DNA of 64,000 nucleotides from the IMG/VR virus record IMGVR_UViG_3300045974_000760, positions 79,217 to 143,216 of that record. One strand, 5' to 3'. The notes beneath the pieces were generated by a model. That model did no database searches and was not told the origin of the DNA. It worked only from the letters and a program-made list of their open reading frames with translations. Positions within the stretch are counted from its first letter, which is position 1. Each line of letters opens with the position of its first letter. Both the position numbers and the translations under genes were made by a program. The DNA is from a virus. Positions 13,812 through 57,927 of the stretch are shown one piece after another.

Positions 13812-13897
13812 GCCTCGTGTAGCTCAGTTGGTAGAGCGCGGGATGACATCCGAAAGGGGTCTGCCCGAGGTCGATGGTTCAAGCCCATCCACAGGCA
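13812..13897 (+). ncRNA. tRNA-like RNA, anticodon loop replaced by a GAAA-capped hairpin
   Basis: Canonical TAGCTCAGTTGGTAGAGC D arm and T arm; 21 nt between CGGG and CCCG. Confidence 0.6.
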
Positions 13898-13990
13898 CAC
13901 GGGCTGAATAAGCTCGGGCGCAAGCCCCTCTACTCTTGGTGACACAAGAGATAGACTGAGTTCCGGCTCAGAGGTAAACCGGAGAAGTAC

Positions 13991-30116: not shown

Positions 30117-30143
30117 GATATTCGCGTCGGCGAGAAAATGTCA

Positions 30144-30174
30144 AAGCCCTCTTCCGAGGGCTTTTTCATTAGCT
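30144..30174 (+). terminator. Intrinsic terminator (possibly bidirectional)
   Basis: AAGCCCTC-TTCC-GAGGGCTT plus TTTCATTAGC. Confidence 0.75.
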
Positions 30175-30177
30175 ATG

Positions 30178-30248
30178 CGGTTCTGGCTGGAGTCGAACCA
30201 GCTTCCGGGAAGTTAGAAATCCTTGTTCGGCCGTTGAACTACAGAACC
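30178..30248 (-). tRNA. tRNA with CUA anticodon (putative amber suppressor); Arg(TCT) register pairs worse
   Basis: Perfect acceptor, D and T stems; canonical numbering gives U32 U33 C34 U35 A36 A37; anticodon stem has 3 WC pairs. Confidence 0.7.
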
Positions 30249-30303
30249 TTGGTGCTCCCGAGTACGCCGTCGCGAAGGTGGGAGCGGGGCCGTCTCTACA
30301 ACA

Positions 30304-30627
30304 TCAACGAGCGAGTGCAAGAGGAAGTTTGCGCACCAGCTTACTGCTCTTGTTGCCTGGCTCGAGCGCGAAGGCGGTCAAGCTGTTGTTGAGGTCGGGC
30401 TCGAAGAAGAGGGCCGTACGGAGGCCTCGTAGACTCGCCTCTTCAGCCAGCCGGCGGAGCTACGTTTCGTCAGGCACGGATAGAACTGCGAGCGTGTTAC
30501 TAGCGGCATACCAGCTCTCCTCCAGATCGCGATGGTGAGCTTGAAACACACGGCACGCATGACACGCTTGAGCGACTTGGAGACCGGGAGGCAGATCTGC
30601 TCTGACGATGACATAAAGTTTCTCCAT
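30304..30627 (-). CDS. Pth2-like peptidyl-tRNA hydrolase with in-frame TAG at codon 56
   Basis: KLYVIVRADL...AQACHA...VPDET*LRRL...FEPDLNNSLTAFAL...LPLAL; family motifs on both sides of TAG 30460-30462. Confidence 0.85.
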
Positions 30628-30904
30628 CGGCGTACTCCTCATTCTCAAGGATGGGCCGTTCAACTCGGATGTAACTCTCAAGCGCAGTCACATCAGCAAG
30701 AAGATCGCAGCCTTCCTTGTGCTTACAATCTGCCTTCTTGGTGGTGCGCGTGTCGTATCTCGCTCGACAAGAATCGCAGAGATAGTCGTACCCGACGACG
30801 CAGCAACGCATCGTCACGGGCGACTCCTTCCACATCTCCTCCTTGGCGCGGTCGACCATCCGCTCGATCCGATCGAGCAGCTCTAGGTCCATCGACGACA
30901 TCAC
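30614..30904 (-). CDS. Cys-rich hypothetical protein (ends at TTA)
   Basis: CxxC...H...C; in-frame TTA overlaps the pth2 start by 14 nt. Confidence 0.55.
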
Positions 30905-31260
30905 TCCGCTGCCTCGTCCTTCTTGTACGGCACCTTCACGCGAGGCGGAGGAGCGGGGATCGCCCCTTCCTTGTTCGCGAGCCAGGTTGTCAGCGCCTCT
31001 TTCGATACGTCTGCTTCCCCGATCATCGCGTCGCGGAAAACGATGACGAGTAGAGAGATATTCGGGAAGTTATGCTCGAACCCGTTCTCCTTCTGCACCT
31101 TGTGGGAACGCTCGATACGTCGGTACGGGAAACCACGTATGAAGCCCCAAGCAAGATTGCCGTACCGGCCTTCTTCCTTGCAGTGCTTACGGAACGACTT
31201 GTGGAACGCCTTGATCTTCTCTTGCTCTTCAGCTGGCAACTGCTTGTAGTTCTCGAACAT
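30901..31260 (-). CDS. Hypothetical protein, first gene of the amber-gated operon
   Basis: LAWGFIRGFPYRRIE; GAGAGGA RBS. Confidence 0.75.
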   Translation of the reverse strand: MFENYKQLPAEEQEKIKAFHKSFRKHCKEEGRYGNLAWGFIRGFPYRRIERSHKVQKENGFEHNFPNISLLVIVFRDAMIGEADVSKEALTTWLANKEGAIPAPPPRVKVPYKKDEAAE

Positions 31261-31347
31261 GGTTGTAGTCCTCTCTATTGAAGGTTCTTGTTGTGGAGTC
31301 AACAACAAGCAACTGGGAGGACCACGAGGCAGCTAGAAGAAGTGCAT
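31261..31347 (-). promoter_or_regulatory. Leader: uORF MHFF-amber plus RBS-sequestering hairpin
   Basis: ATG CAC TTC TTC TAG in frame with ATG 31260; GTGGTCCTC/GAGGACTAC outer stem and CTTGTTGT/ACAACAAG inner stem. Confidence 0.7.
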
Positions 31348-31356
31348 GACTCACCG

Positions 31357-31384
31357 AACATAACACGCGTACTTCGCCGCGCAA
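31357..31384 (-). promoter_or_regulatory. Sigma70-like promoter for the minus-strand operon
   Basis: TTGCGC-16nt-TATGTT with extended TG. Confidence 0.5.
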
Positions 31385-44503: not shown

Positions 44504-47500
44504 TGAGCACGTGCGTCTCACTTGGCTGGGGTACAGGTCCTTGGGGCGCAACCCCGTGGGGCGCAGGTGGCAGCTTCACGCCGGGCGGCGCACTTCCCGT
44601 TGTCGACCCCTTCGACATCTACTGCGTCGGGCCTTGTGGCCCCATCTCCGCACTGCTGACGTACTTCGATGTCGAGCTCCACGGGGATGGGACGCACGTC
44701 TCCTACGCGCCCACTGGTGACATCGTTCTGTCGGGCGGCTCCCCCAACAACAACCCCGTCTGGATTGCCATCAGCAACGGAGTACCGGGGCAATCGACGT
44801 TCGAGGCCACCCTCAAGTTCGACCAGCTGCCCCTGACGTTCTCTGATGTCCTGAACTGCCACATCCTCATCGGCCTTCAGGACTCCACCGGTATGTCGAC
44901 CGGGCTGCTGTTCGCGCAGACCGGCATTGCCTTCGCCACGTGCTTCCGCCCAGATGGTTTCTACAACCTGGTGCTCGATGCCCCTATCCAGATTTTGCCC
45001 GACAGCACCGGGCTGTTCGTGGAAGGGGAGTACTACGTTCTACGCGTCGTCACCGACAGCGATACCCAAGTACTCTACGTCTACCTCACCAGGGCCATCG
45101 AGCTCCCGCTCATCGGGCACCAGCTACGCTTCGTCCTCCCCGCCTTCCCGTCTGCCGACTGCCCCGTCACACCGCCCGACCAAACCGTGCTTTCGGTGCG
45201 AGGCACCAGCACTCAAGTCACGCGTCTCGCGGTTGGTAGTATCTGTCTCGGCAGCGGGTTGATCATCCCGAATGTCCCGCCGGTTGCCGACTCCGGCAAA
45301 GACCAGGCAGTACAGCTCTGCTCCATCGCCCAGCTCGACGGCTCCCGCAGCTTCGACCCTGAAGGCCAGCCCGTCACCTACACGTGGCGCCTCATCGATG
45401 CTCCGCAGGTCTCCGCATGCAGCTTCTCGGAGTACGACGGTGAGACGCGGCAGGCAGCACCACACGCCCCGCCCGCCCAGTACACCAACAAGTTCTACTC
45501 GGCCGCGCTCGGCGTCCTCCACGCTACAACCGGGCAGGCCATCGAAGCCGGTGATGTACTTGTTGTAGAAGGCAACCCCTACACCATCACCGGTACAGGC
45601 GCAGACCTCGGCGCGTTCTTCGTCACCATCGATGGCTACGAGCTCCGAGATGACCTGCCCGCCGGCACGTTCTTTCACCTGCTGCGCCAGCGCTACGTCT
45701 CGGGTCGCACCACCGTGAAGCCCACGTTCTACCCGGACGTCCCGGGCTTCTACAAGTTCGACCTCCAGGTGGGTGATGGCGCCCTCCTGTCCGCGTACTC
45801 CACCACCGTGATGAACGTGGTTGAGTCACCGCTGGCGCGCGGCTGCATCCCCGACATGTCTTTCATGTGGGACTACCTCACCGACTTCTGGTCGTTGGTC
45901 GAAGACATCAAGCCCCGCATGGAGACCGTGTGGAGCGCCATGGCGCAGATTGTCGCCGCAGAGATGTGGCGCGCCTGGCAGCTCGAGTACTCCAAGAGCC
46001 TCCGCGATATCCCACGCACCTTCGGGCGTAAGTGGCTCCACTACGACACACAGCTCGCCGAGTACGTGCCCGAGGCTACCGCACACCGACTCGCGCAAGG
46101 CGGTCTCGCCTTCACCGTCCCGCCCTCCGGACTCAGCTGGGCGGGCCTCTCCATCGCCCTCACCTCCGAGCTCATTGCTGCCCCGCTCCTGCTCACGTTC
46201 ACCGGCACTGACCCGCTGAGTGCCACGAACATCGCGGCACAGCTCAACTCGTTCTTCACGAGCCGTGAGCCCCGCATGGTCGCTACGCTGGTCACGGCTC
46301 GCGACGGATCTGGCGATACCATCCGCATCAACAGCCTCCTGCCGTTCTACGTTGACGCCGCAGGTACGGTCCCCCTCCCCCTCGGCGCGGCCAACAAGTA
46401 CCTCCGCGGTACTGGCGGGGTGCGCCTCACGGACACGCTCTACAAAGTCCCGTTCTCCCTCAACGGCATCTCGCTCGGCGCAGACCAAGTCCTGCTCATT
46501 GGCGAACAGACATACACCATTGTTCGGTTCGTCGACGACCCCGGCGACGTGTGGCCGACGCAGCGCATCCTGGTCGCTGAGAAGCTCGCGGCGGATGTAG
46601 GCGCAACCTGGTCCATCCCTGACCAGACGCTCTCCATTCGCACCGACTTCTACAACGGCTGCTTCACCGCCGGTGACATGGCCGAGTACGAAGTGCAGGC
46701 GCCTAGCGGCGCGACTCTGGATGTCTGGTGCCCCGTCCTCGGCGCCTCATCGATTCAGCCGAACGTCCTGCTCGTCGACCTCGAGCAAGTAGCGGCAGCC
46801 ACGCTCCTGCAGCTGGCCTCGTACCGCCTGTACCTGAAGCGTGTTGCGCGTCGACAGTACGTACCCGTCGACGACCTCGTTGTGGACGTCCCGCTCCTGC
46901 AGCCCTCCATCAAGATGGCGGATGATACGCAGGTGCTTCGCCGGAACATCGACTTCTACATCGAGTCCTTCCGCGGTCGTAACGTGCTGCGCTTCGTCTC
47001 CAACGAAACGCAGGATGTGTGGGAGGGCGAGATTCCTCCAGAACGGCTCTGGGCAGAGTTCACGTACCTCGACAACCGGCCGATGATTGAGGACAACTTC
47101 GGGCGGGCGGCCGGCGTCATGGTGCGCGACATCGAAGCACTACCGGAGTCGGTCGATTACCTCTCCGCTGTTCGCGGGGTTTGGTACCTCCTCTTCAACG
47201 GCCCCACCCTCACGAATCTTCGGGTTGGCGCGCAGATACTGCTCGGGCTGCCCTTCGCGGAGGAGACCAGCCGGCTGGTGGAGATTCGAAATGACTTCTC
47301 CCCCACCACGGGCCGTCTCTTGCTCTCCGACCTTGACCGTCCTGAGCTCGTACGTTCGTACTCGTACCCACGCAGCCTCGAGCTCGAGACCAATCCGAAC
47401 ACCAACCTGCCCTACGCGGTGGGAGACATCGTCTCGCAGTTCGCGCCGCTTGTGCGCGGCGTAGAGATTGACGACTACGTCAAGACTCCCGATTGGTTCC

Positions 47501-56595: not shown

Positions 56596-57927
56596 CTACT
56601 TCTCGAGAATCGTCTGCGACCCGCGGCGGAGCGTCCAATCATCCGCAGCGTCGTTCGTGTACAGCGCGATGTTCGGGTATTCCTTTCGGAACAGCCTGAT
56701 GATGTCCGCGACCTCCATGCGGAGTGTCGGATGTACCGTCGGTCCCGAACGAAGCTCGAGCAGGTGGATGAGCGCAGGTAGCGGGTAGCTTGCGCGCGAG
56801 CGCACCATGAACCCCATGGGCACGTAGTACTGCCGCGGCAGTGCCGGTATCTTCTCGAGCTCTATGGTCAAGTCTTCGATCAGCGCTCTGCCCCGCTTAC
56901 GCAAGTCATCCGGCAACTGCTCGAGGTACCAGGGGTGAAAGCCGAACTCGGTTGTGAGAATCGGCATGCGTGCAAGGTCTCGGCGGTGGCGCTGCAGGTC
57001 GCGGAAGCTGCCGAAGTCGAGCGTGAACAGCCAGTTCAGCCGCAGCGCATCCGCGAGGAACGGTGGTACGAGCGCTCCTCGAGGGCGCGTGAGCAGTAGC
57101 TCGTAGTGCTCCTTCAGCGCAGCCTCGTTGTCGGCCCATTTGATGGCGCCGCGCATGTAGCCCCAGAGAGCCTCTTGGTGTTCGTTCTCGGTGAAGTACG
57201 GCTTCGACTCATCGTCTTCTGCGTAGTAGCGCGTCTCGGCGTGGGCTTCGTACCACTCCAGAACCTCCGGCTTGTCCACGTGGCTGAAGCTCTCCGGGTA
57301 CTTCTCTTGGAGTGCGGCGAGCGCGCGCGAGAACAACAACCGTATCTCGAGGAGTGGGTGGTGCTGCCCCCACTTGATAGCGTCTGCTGCTTGCCTGAAG
57401 TTGGTATGCCAGCTCAGGTTGGTGGTGCAGCCCGCGGGCAACCACGCGCGCAGGATGTCGAAGACGCGGGCCTTGATCGCGCGTCCGTACGTCGCTTCGT
57501 CCTCCGTTTCTTGTCGTGGGTGCAGCGCGCGTACGTGCGCCTCCACGGGCACCTGCGCGTCCTTGTAGAACTGCATCCAGCGATCGAGGATGTCGGCCTT
57601 GTTCCACGGGTCGACGATGTCGCGGTTCGACATGTCGAGGTAGCGGGTCGAGGACTCCTGCCCGCTGAACAACGACCAATCCTCGATGGCCTTTGCTGCA
57701 AGCATCGAGACGTTCTCGAAGAACAGCGTGACGGTACCGCAGTCACCAATCGAGGGGTGGCCATACCCCACGTAGAACTTCGACATGAACTTGCCGCTGC
57801 CTGCCGCCTGGACCTTCTTGTAGTGCTCGCGCGCGCTCGTGTCGCTGCGAGAGTAGAGGGCCTGCAGCATGGCCCCGTCTTGCGGGTCGATACCATCGAG
57901 GAGAAAGACGTCGGAGCGCGGAATCAT
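56596..57927 (-). CDS. thyX: FAD-dependent thymidylate synthase, long ThyX-like form
   Basis: YGHPSIGD, QESSTRY, DFGSFRDLQRHR, ELRS. Confidence 0.85.
   Translation of the reverse strand: MIPRSDVFLLDGIDPQDGAMLQALYSRSDTSAREHYKKVQAAGSGKFMSKFYVGYGHPSIGDCGTVTLFFENVSMLAAKAIEDWSLFSGQESSTRYLDMSNRDIVDPWNKADILDRWMQFYKDAQVPVEAHVRALHPRQETEDEATYGRAIKARVFDILRAWLPAGCTTNLSWHTNFRQAADAIKWGQHHPLLEIRLLFSRALAALQEKYPESFSHVDKPEVLEWYEAHAETRYYAEDDESKPYFTENEHQEALWGYMRGAIKWADNEAALKEHYELLLTRPRGALVPPFLADALRLNWLFTLDFGSFRDLQRHRRDLARMPILTTEFGFHPWYLEQLPDDLRKRGRALIEDLTIELEKIPALPRQYYVPMGFMVRSRASYPLPALIHLLELRSGPTVHPTLRMEVADIIRLFRKEYPNIALYTNDAADDWTLRRGSQTILEK

Follow-up and report, generated by a model that had tools for sequence, protein, structure and literature searches.

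An amber-interrupted PTH2-like gene in a phage operon with an amber-containing leader and a candidate suppressor tRNA

Introduction

PTH2-type peptidyl-tRNA hydrolase genes occur in phage transfer RNA (tRNA) arrays (PMC5966550) and in jumbo phages (PMC7824862). The jumbo phage XacN1 encodes two tRNAs with the anticodon CUA together with a peptidyl-tRNA hydrolase, and no target was found for these tRNAs (PMC5852040). Here we analyze a 64,000-nucleotide stretch of DNA from a soil/pond phage (the window), which is the last 64 kb of the 143,216-base IMG/VR record IMGVR_UViG_3300045974_000760 (guanine plus cytosine (GC) content 61%; completeness 77% by CheckV). In this stretch a PTH2-like gene is interrupted by an in-frame TAG (amber) codon and is followed on the same strand by a tRNA with the anticodon CUA. 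Based on the comparisons reported below, the TAG, which is codon 56 of the gene, is probably not damage but a read-through site maintained by selection, and it is the second amber lock (an in-frame stop that has to be read through) of two in the operon. The window phage resembles XacN1 in combining the standard genetic code, a CUA tRNA and a peptidyl-tRNA hydrolase, but here the locus has explicit candidate targets, namely a leader open reading frame (ORF) and the PTH2-like gene itself. For suppressor tRNAs of standard-code phages that have no known target, such as those of XacN1, the locus and its relatives offer one in the tRNA's own operon.

The nearest cultured homologues are "peptidyl tRNA hydrolase" genes of the cluster C mycobacteriophages (Ceeclamvirinae), with 48% identity. 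In ScoobyDoobyDoo, gp79 is followed 180 nucleotides (nt) on by gp80, annotated as tRNA-Pyl(cta), and in Adlitam gp158 is followed by a CUA tRNA, gp159, annotated as tRNA-OTHER. The PTH2 subfamily, gene order and strand are the same as in the window, with the tRNA 180-310 nt downstream. In contrast to the window phage, the cluster C phages have an uninterrupted PTH2, and they have no other gene in common with it.

Recoded phages, in which TAG encodes Gln ("code 15"), likewise carry a tRNA(CUA) expected to decode in-frame TAG while the host is on the standard code (10.1101/2021.08.26.457843, PMC9523058, PMC10879173). The window phage differs from these in that TAG still ends about 14% of its genes and only two read-through sites were found, both in the operon of the tRNA. 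It also has 61% GC, unlike the AT-rich gut phages, and sister cassettes use UAA or UGA instead.

Leader-peptide translational attenuation, of which ermCL/ermC is the type, bears a general likeness to the leader mechanism considered here. In prfB, the gene for release factor 2 (RF2), autoregulation proceeds via an in-frame UGA, a programmed +1 frameshift and an internal Shine-Dalgarno sequence. The likeness to prfB is one of logic only, in that an in-frame stop in a translation-factor gene senses termination versus bypass. In the window the frame is continuous over the TAG with no frameshift site, bypass would fall to a dedicated tRNA, and it is this neighbouring tRNA that would be sensed and not the gene's own product. 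Closer in anatomy are the RAPP/RGPP arrest peptides (ApdA, ApdP, ApcA and the examples from Streptomyces lividans), which likewise have a short upstream ORF with Arg-Gly-Pro-Pro and place the stall-site codons in a hairpin that hides the Shine-Dalgarno sequence of the next gene, as is predicted here (PMC7897499, PMC10951233, PMC12992588). In the window, however, the motif lies behind an in-frame stop and would be reached only after read-through, the predicted stall would occur on a chain of about 10-11 residues, and the input would be suppressor-tRNA activity, not secretion or an antibiotic.

In the literature searched we found no paper linking PTH2 to suppressor tRNAs, including for the cluster C mycobacteriophage gene pair, and no account of an amber-interrupted PTH2 or of an arrest motif behind a stop codon. 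The novel elements here are an in-gene lock at a hot spot that recurs, a pair of sister loci with amber and ochre stops, and strain-level evidence of selection.

Results

An amber codon within a complete PTH2 frame

The PTH2-like gene lies on the minus strand at 30304..30627 of the window and has 107 codons. It starts with ATG at 30627-30625, with GAGGAG upstream, and continues through 55 sense codons, TAG at codon 56 (30462-30460) and 51 open codons up to TGA at 30306-30304, with no other stops or frameshifts. A preliminary description of this DNA had reported a Pth2-like gene with an in-frame TAG and a CUA tRNA 55 nt downstream, and every coordinate was borne out.

The 107-residue read-through product matches the Pfam family PTH2 (PF01981) over residues 3-95 with 39.6 bits (cut-off 23) and an E value of 6.7e-10. 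The part before the TAG reaches only 21.4 bits by itself, which is under the cut-off, and the part after it gives no match. Homologue alignments run gap-free across the TAG, in the same frame on both sides, and a profile of the relatives matches the archaeal Pth2 structures 2zv3 and 1wn2 with an E value of ~1e-8. The AF2 (AlphaFold2) model of the read-through product has a predicted local distance difference test (pLDDT) score of 97.6, and the top Foldseek matches of the model are the Pth2 structures 1q7s, 3erj, 2zv3, 1wn2 and 1xty (TM score 0.78-0.81, probability 1.00). The product is therefore modelled with the alpha/beta fold of Pth2, and peptidyl-tRNA hydrolysis is its predicted activity.

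In this model codon 56 falls in the first turn of helix 3. A 55-residue product would be without two of the four strands and without E76-P77-D78, a motif that is nearly invariant in the subfamily and is encoded after the TAG. In the profile alignment this EPD adjoins the DAG motif of 2zv3 with a one-column offset, the match being approximate at the level of residues. We take the Asp of EPD to be catalytic and to be the counterpart of the D in the archaeal DAG motif, an active-site residue in the strand that follows helix 3.

The closest homologue in a collection of 5.8 billion proteins has 62% identity, and all 73 of 73 matches are full length. Exact look-up of the split products in a collection of 15 billion proteins found neither on record. 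Three metagenome runs match the stretch: X1 (pond), X2 (2016, from a different study) and X3 (wastewater). A 53-kb contig from X1, probably the source of the record, is identical to the stretch at ~13x word depth. From X2 a contig of 245 nt covers 30287-30529 with 8 differences, corresponding to ~3% strain divergence, and none of these is at the TAG. Six differences are listed after the TAG; five (30334, 30343, 30400, 30412 and 30415) are at codon position 3 and the sixth (30435) changes Ser to Gly (binomial P = 0.018 for at least five of six at third positions). Since this strain keeps the TAG, the predominance of third-position changes indicates that the frame behind it is under protein-level selection in a lineage that carries the TAG. 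The coverage of X3 excludes the TAG; in the more distant relative found there, the tRNA region shows no change over its central 94 nt. Whether the TAG was a private mutation or an error had been raised at the outset. Given the identical X1 contig, its retention in X2 and an in-frame TAG in 10 other homologues (see below), the sequence comparisons indicate that it is neither.

A candidate amber suppressor tRNA

The tRNA occupies 30177..30248 on the minus strand and begins 55 nt past the TGA of the PTH2-like gene. It has a class I cloverleaf and scores 49.7 bits against the Rfam tRNA model (gathering threshold 29; E value 1.6e-9). ARAGORN calls the anticodon as cta (CUA, 30216-30214), and because the 7-nt loop UUCUAAC has U33 and A37, CUA is placed at positions 34-36. 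Pairing is perfect throughout the 7-bp acceptor stem and the 5-bp T stem, and the D stem is intact as well; the discriminator base is a G, and the gene encodes no CCA. What the preliminary description omitted is the weakness of the anticodon stem, in which three Watson-Crick pairs are flanked by U.U and A.C. In the alternative UCU register hardly any anticodon stem would remain.

ARAGORN applies the label "Pyl" to any CUA tRNA. tRNA-Pyl has a short D loop without GG, a 3-nt variable loop and a 6-bp anticodon stem. The label was rejected for the window tRNA on architecture, no search for PylS having been made: its D loop is of 7 nt and contains GG, its T loop is the standard GTTCGA, and its anticodon stem has 5 positions, as in an ordinary elongator. 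The identity elements are ambiguous as to the amino acid inserted, and the partner tRNAs of related loci belong to a number of unrelated types. In the 143-kb record, which has 8 tRNAs, this is the sole reader of a stop codon, and it stands apart from the tRNA cluster. There is no terminator-like site between the PTH2 stop and the tRNA, and an intrinsic terminator-like hairpin (30133..30164, minus strand; 9-bp stem at 30164-30143 and T-rich tail) lies 12 nt past the tRNA and closes the operon. We treat the tRNA as a predicted amber suppressor that would be expressed and charged.

TAG as a stop codon in the rest of the genome

The preliminary description had also stated that the genome otherwise uses TAG as a stop, and this was confirmed. 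Across the 178 genes called on the whole record with a self-trained gene caller, TGA is the stop in 136, TAG in 25 and TAA in 17. The frames beyond the TAG are non-coding after nearly all of the TAG-ending genes, and the three exceptions have a fresh start codon in the same frame. These same-frame runs, at positions 78010-78843, 135812-137143 (window 56596-57927) and 44607-44852 of the record, were considered as TAG-spanning genes and rejected, because each consists of two genes, the second with its own start downstream of the TAG. Among these pairs is thyX and dcd, where thyX terminates at a TAG 15 codons ahead of dcd. We also scanned all uncalled gaps of the record for frames joined by TAG and found only the PTH2-like gene and the leader of its operon, so that these are the only two frames that need read-through. 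No gene with a release-factor (RF-1) domain is present in the record. We conclude that the phage genome is not recoded and that TAG is otherwise a normal stop, unlike the situation under code 15.

The sensitivity of the search for split genes is limited because the phage has almost no sequenced relatives and few of its genes have homologues to compare. A scan of codon scores for TAGs flanked on each side by coding sequence missed even the PTH2-like gene and is therefore insensitive. A whole-genome tblastn against ScoobyDoobyDoo for other TAG-spanning genes had no power, as PTH2 is the sole gene common to both phages. Megablast of the region against 50,697 phage records gave no match, nor did a pattern scan of a genome-contig collection, and the diversity of the A2 alignment was too great for locus searches.

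A second amber codon in the leader of the operon

The leader ORF (31315..31347, minus strand) reads ATG CAC TTC TTC TAG CTG CCT CGT GGT CCT CCC, that is, M-H-F-F-UAG-L-P-R-G-P-P, with the TAG at 31335-31333. The RGPP codons (31326-31315) lie 55 nt ahead of the ATG of gene A, the first of two genes between the leader and PTH2. RGPP is a robust ribosome-arrest motif that is refractory to elongation factor P (EF-P) and avoided by bacterial proteomes (PMC12992588; also PMC7897499, PMC10951233). Both RGPP and RAPP are absent from the 178 called genes of the phage. About 10 nt ahead of the leader ATG is a promoter-like element (31357..31384, minus strand) made up of TTGCGC (31384-31379), a 16-nt spacer and TATGTT (31362-31357), which is conserved in a syntenic locus, L026. 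A sigma-70 consensus scan made no call here, and we infer a promoter from the sequence itself.

RNA folding predicts a hairpin (31261..31326, minus strand) in which the Gly-Pro-Pro codons (GUGGUCCUC) are paired with the Shine-Dalgarno region of gene A (GAGGACUAC; GAGAGGA at 31275-31269). In the window the hairpin has -26.1 kcal/mol (z = -1.66). The equivalent hairpin of L026, which forms from a different sequence, has z = -3.15, and the Gly-Pro-Pro codons are predicted to pair with the gene A Shine-Dalgarno sequence in both phages.

L026, which has the closest PTH2, is a syntenic sister of the operon, with identities of 40% for gene A, 70% for gene B, 62% for PTH2 and 45% for a divergent neighbouring gene. 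Its leader reads M-F-F-L-UAA-L-P-R-G-P-P and its cassette tRNA has the anticodon UUA. All four nucleotide differences in the LPRGPP codons between the window and L026 are synonymous. It follows that the codons behind the leader stop appear to be translated in both phages.

We then looked for leaders of this kind upstream of PTH2 in related loci. The locus set comprised 19 IMG/VR loci, 4 loci behind the closest database proteins, 80 metagenome loci and two phage records, yielding 97 distinct loci (numbered with L). Using a pattern of a start, up to 14 codons, a stop, up to 8 codons and R[AG]PP, a leader was found in 24 of the 97 loci, whereas the reverse strand gave 2 and triplet shuffles 0.55, an enrichment of at least 12-fold. 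Where a locus has a leader as well as a stop-reading tRNA, the stop of the leader corresponds to the anticodon without exception (18 of 18 loci; 11 TAG/CUA, 4 TAA/UUA and 3 TGA/UCA). The leaders share the consensus H-F-[LWF] ahead of the stop, with Leu or Ile behind it, and 16 of 25 leaders encode Pro-Pro as CCUCC. The stop is followed by C in 13 leaders, A in 9, G in 3 and T in none. Two further pattern matches in the window, at ~37458 and ~24514 on the minus strand, were counted as chance because they are antisense to genes and lack the consensus. A leader of the TAG-LPRGPP type also occurs in L004, a related metagenomic contig. Given this leader and the uninterrupted cassettes of cultured cluster C phages, the biology may be reachable in the laboratory.

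PTH2 is paired with stop-reading tRNAs across diverse loci

Of the 87 loci with at least 300 nt of downstream sequence, 40 have a reader of a stop codon as the first tRNA on the same strand in the 1 kb after PTH2. The anticodons are CUA in 31, UUA in 5, UCA in 3 and a four-base UCUA in one, and in only 2 of the 87 loci does another tRNA come first. Half of the partner tRNAs lie within ~60 nt of PTH2. They are of unrelated types, both class I and with a long variable arm; thus it is the stop-reading function that is conserved and not one tRNA lineage. PTH2 ends on the codon that its partner reads in 4 of 39 cases, where 12.5 would be expected (P = 0.0015). The cassettes range from 27 to 74% GC. 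Taken across these loci, the pairing of PTH2 and tRNA is old and general and not particular to the window phage.

Several partner tRNAs depart from the usual pattern. At L065:980-1052 and L066:543-615 the tRNA lies 4 nt behind PTH2 and has an 8-nt anticodon loop (ARAGORN 'tcta'); it may be a four-base (UAGA) decoder. At L027:4367-4441 the gene behind PTH2 (59% identical) is a class I tRNA that ARAGORN calls Leu(taa), a UUA reader, with a G.A mismatch in the anticodon stem and an uncertain loop register in which an 8-nt loop is possible. The tRNAs of the window, L026 and L027 have nearly identical D arms and the anticodons CUA, UUA and UAA.

In-frame TAG recurs in PTH2

Among the 97 distinct loci, 10 diverged homologues other than the window gene have an in-frame stop inside PTH2, and in 10 of 10 it is TAG, with no TGA or TAA. 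Two of them (L086 and L103) have the TAG in the column of the window, in the first turn of helix 3, three (L045, L051 and L056) have it one column earlier, and one (L107) has it two columns later. A second hot spot lies near window residue 34, in the first turn of helix 2 (L078, L079 and L082, with L021 nearby). When mapped on a tree of the family the TAG label undergoes about 8 changes, which are scattered. The nearest uninterrupted relatives have Gln, Glu or Asp at the lock columns, and the residues of relatives at these columns are Glu, Gln, Asp or Ala overall. Four loci, the window, L045, L051 and L082, carry both a leader lock and a PTH2 lock.

Wider 20-kb context of TAG-interrupted loci was available for L110 and L111 only. 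Long genes of the normal kind are found in both, and TAG terminates 3 of 17 and 8 of 32 genes; the lock is therefore gene-specific in other phages too.

The locks of the second hot spot (L078, L079 and L082) stand in the context Phe-Ser/Pro-TAG-Ile/Val/Leu. This resembles the leader consensus (His/Arg)-Phe-x-stop-Leu/Ile, for example in L042 and L085, and the leader and hot-spot locks may share a context that favours read-through.

Discussion

How the operon might work

The preliminary description proposed that full-length hydrolase is made only on amber read-through by a co-transcribed tRNA(CUA), as a local switch, and the comparative evidence supports this. In the mechanism that we favour, the operon would run from the leader (MHFF-UAG-LPRGPP) through gene A, gene B and the PTH2-like gene (UAG at codon 56) to the tRNA(CUA) and the terminator, and the tRNA would be excised from the operon transcript and charged by a host synthetase. 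Without suppression, ribosomes would finish at leader codon 5 and the ribosome-binding site of gene A would stay paired with the Gly-Pro-Pro codons. Where the tRNA beats release factor 1, the ribosome would continue and stall at RGPP atop the hairpin arm, and the ribosome-binding site would be freed. Genes A and B would then be translated, followed by PTH2, with the enzyme completed only by those ribosomes that read the second UAG. Output would scale with the square of the suppression efficiency, and a peptidyl-tRNA-hydrolase-like activity would be supplied only during stop-codon read-through. Our best guess for the substrate is peptidyl-tRNA shed by ribosomes that overrun stops or stall. The sequences establish how the operon is built, its conservation, the match of codon to anticodon and the selection on the frames behind the stops, and the predicted parts of this mechanism are expression and charging of the tRNA, the stall, the freeing of the ribosome-binding site and the substrate of PTH2.

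We put forward a broader proposal more tentatively. The operon could be a self-contained, codon-addressable sensor and effector of its own tRNA's override of one stop, which acts via the read-through-dependent RGPP stall and the PTH2 lock to release genes A, B and PTH2. Co-mutation of the anticodon and the leader stop would re-address it to UAG, UAA, UGA or perhaps a four-base codon, and PTH2 would be a clean-up or control enzyme of natural nonsense suppression. If so, this would explain the "orphan" suppressor tRNAs of large phages. The operon would then be a natural circuit that takes stop read-through as its input, combines an arrest peptide behind a stop with an in-gene stop, and has been retargeted to all three stops. 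It would tie together arrest-peptide attenuation, phage recoding and ribosome rescue by peptidyl-tRNA hydrolysis, would offer synthetic biology a ready-made orthogonal switch, and would open the role of archaeal-type Pth2 in phages to direct test.

Several observations weigh against selectively kept locks. Only ~10% of PTH2 homologues have an internal TAG, and the lock columns are variable surface positions, as would be expected for mutations that are merely tolerated. The tree is poorly resolved (110 columns, quick search), and its well-supported branches force only 2 origins of the TAG. The PTH2 gene at L079/L111:9639-9944 both contains a TAG and terminates on one; the 10 kb to each side of it include no tRNA gene, so that any suppressor it has must be encoded elsewhere. 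Some of the loci with matching leader and anticodon are close relatives, such as L030 and L032, the z-score of the window hairpin is modest, and the strain comparison consists of six substitutions in one short contig. With three Watson-Crick pairs in its anticodon stem the tRNA may be a weak suppressor, and a strong one should be costly to the phage because TAG ends ~14% of its own genes.

Alternative explanations

One alternative is a buffered nonsense mutation, in which GAG or CAG became TAG and was tolerated at a surface position thanks to the adjoining suppressor, with less PTH2 as a consequence and no regulation. We consider this unlikely. In its favour, the window's column is one of the most variable in the family, with A, E, D, S, H, G and Q all represented, Glu, His or Ala occupies it in the closest relatives, ~90% of homologues do without an internal TAG, and the pairing of PTH2 with the tRNA predates the TAG. 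A tolerated mutation fits less well with some 8 independent occurrences concentrated in 4 of ~35 variable columns, or with the survival of the TAG through ~3% strain divergence with purifying selection behind it. Nor does it provide for the leader, whose stop, a second and clearly functional one, co-varies with the anticodon, or for the presence of both locks in the same four loci.

It is considerably less probable that the tRNA is no suppressor but a tRNA-like molecule that the PTH2-like enzyme has as its partner, substrate or decoy (in counter-defence, for instance), with the gene product truncated or inactive. The irregular anticodon stems in the window, L026 and L027 would suit such a role, as would the lack of a target for the CUA tRNAs of XacN1 (PMC5852040). 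However, the leader stop matches the anticodon in 18 of 18 loci and for all three stop codons, the LPRGPP codons change only synonymously, PTH2 avoids its partner's codon as its own terminator, and the substitutions past the PTH2 TAG are at third positions. Stop decoding is therefore required.

There is very little to recommend a pseudogene, or a sequencing or assembly error at one base. The window does present a single TAG in a metagenome-assembled contig, with no relative above 62% identity in the protein collections, but the X1 contig is identical, X2, from a different study, keeps the TAG among its 8 differences, there are no further stops or frameshifts, the read-through model is of high confidence (pLDDT 97.6), and the same feature is found in 10 loci from other assemblies. 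Least probable of all is a genome-wide reassignment of TAG (code 15) with PTH2 as one of many TAG-containing genes, since, although CUA tRNAs are a hallmark of recoded phages (10.1101/2021.08.26.457843; PMC9523058) and the low-GC locus L021 with its in-frame TAG may be of the recoded kind, TAG ends about 25 of the 178 genes of the window phage with non-coding sequence or a new gene (thyX/dcd) beyond, the scan of the uncalled gaps turned up no further split gene, a release-factor gene is absent from the record, and the gene calls of L110 and L111 are normal.

Other features of the operon and the genome

Gene A (30901..31260, minus strand; 119 amino acids) is the first gene of the cassette, is conserved, and has the motif RYGNLAWGFVRGFPYRRIER. 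Homologues are found between leader and PTH2 in L026, L045, L074 and L082, and weaker ones in L035, L070, L076 and L094. Neither gene A nor gene B belongs to a known family, and gene A has no Pfam, PHROG or Foldseek match. The AF2 model of gene A (pLDDT 79) has a helix-helix-helix-hairpin arrangement. An assignment to sigma-factor region 4 was rejected, as the matches are weak (Z 3-4.6, the best being 4.6 with VIA-align) and below a trustworthy level.

Gene B (30500..30901, minus strand) encodes a Cys-rich protein and, among the collected cassettes, is present in the window and L026 only. Its homologous part of 94 amino acids (30901-30623) is 70% identical to the 94-residue gene of L026, which ends ...YADG-TGA. 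This TGA was lost in the window because 3 nt are missing relative to L026, and gene B continues for 40 further codons over the PTH2 start to a tandem TAG-TAA (30502-30497). The same 3-nt difference removes one Ala codon of PTH2. As a result gene B overlaps the first 42 PTH2 codons out of frame, and its TAG-TAA is formed by the invariant Ser-Asn codons of PTH2.

In-frame TTA is depleted ~14-fold across the record, with 12 observed against 164 expected from positional base composition, and ATA and CTA are depleted merely 1.5- to 3-fold. Nine of the 12 TTA codons are either at a gene junction or within the final 15% of a called ORF, and the one in gene B (window 30616-30614, minus strand) is three codons past the position where the L026 homologue ends with TGA. 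The suggestion that PTH2 serves termination by drop-off at TTA was not supported: the cassette spans 27-74% GC, and no tie between PTH2 and TTA was found, though TTA is rare. This rarity alone gives no proof of termination at TTA, and is explained at least as well by host-like avoidance of a poorly decoded codon, as in bldA-like hosts.

In ScoobyDoobyDoo a second CUA tRNA, tRNA-Sup(cta), lies in the main tRNA array (L024:42270-42338, gene 159). One PTH2-tRNA(CUA) cassette (L029) is in a bacterial chromosome, that of Actinomadura craniellae (QLYX01000009.1, 95465-103782), next to genes for a UvrD-like helicase, DUF4276 and an AAA_15/AAA_21 ATPase, in what looks like a defence island or prophage remnant. 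Within the phage tRNA cluster of the window, ARAGORN reports a tRNA-like gene with a two-base "anticodon" (ga) at 13813-13898 on the plus strand.

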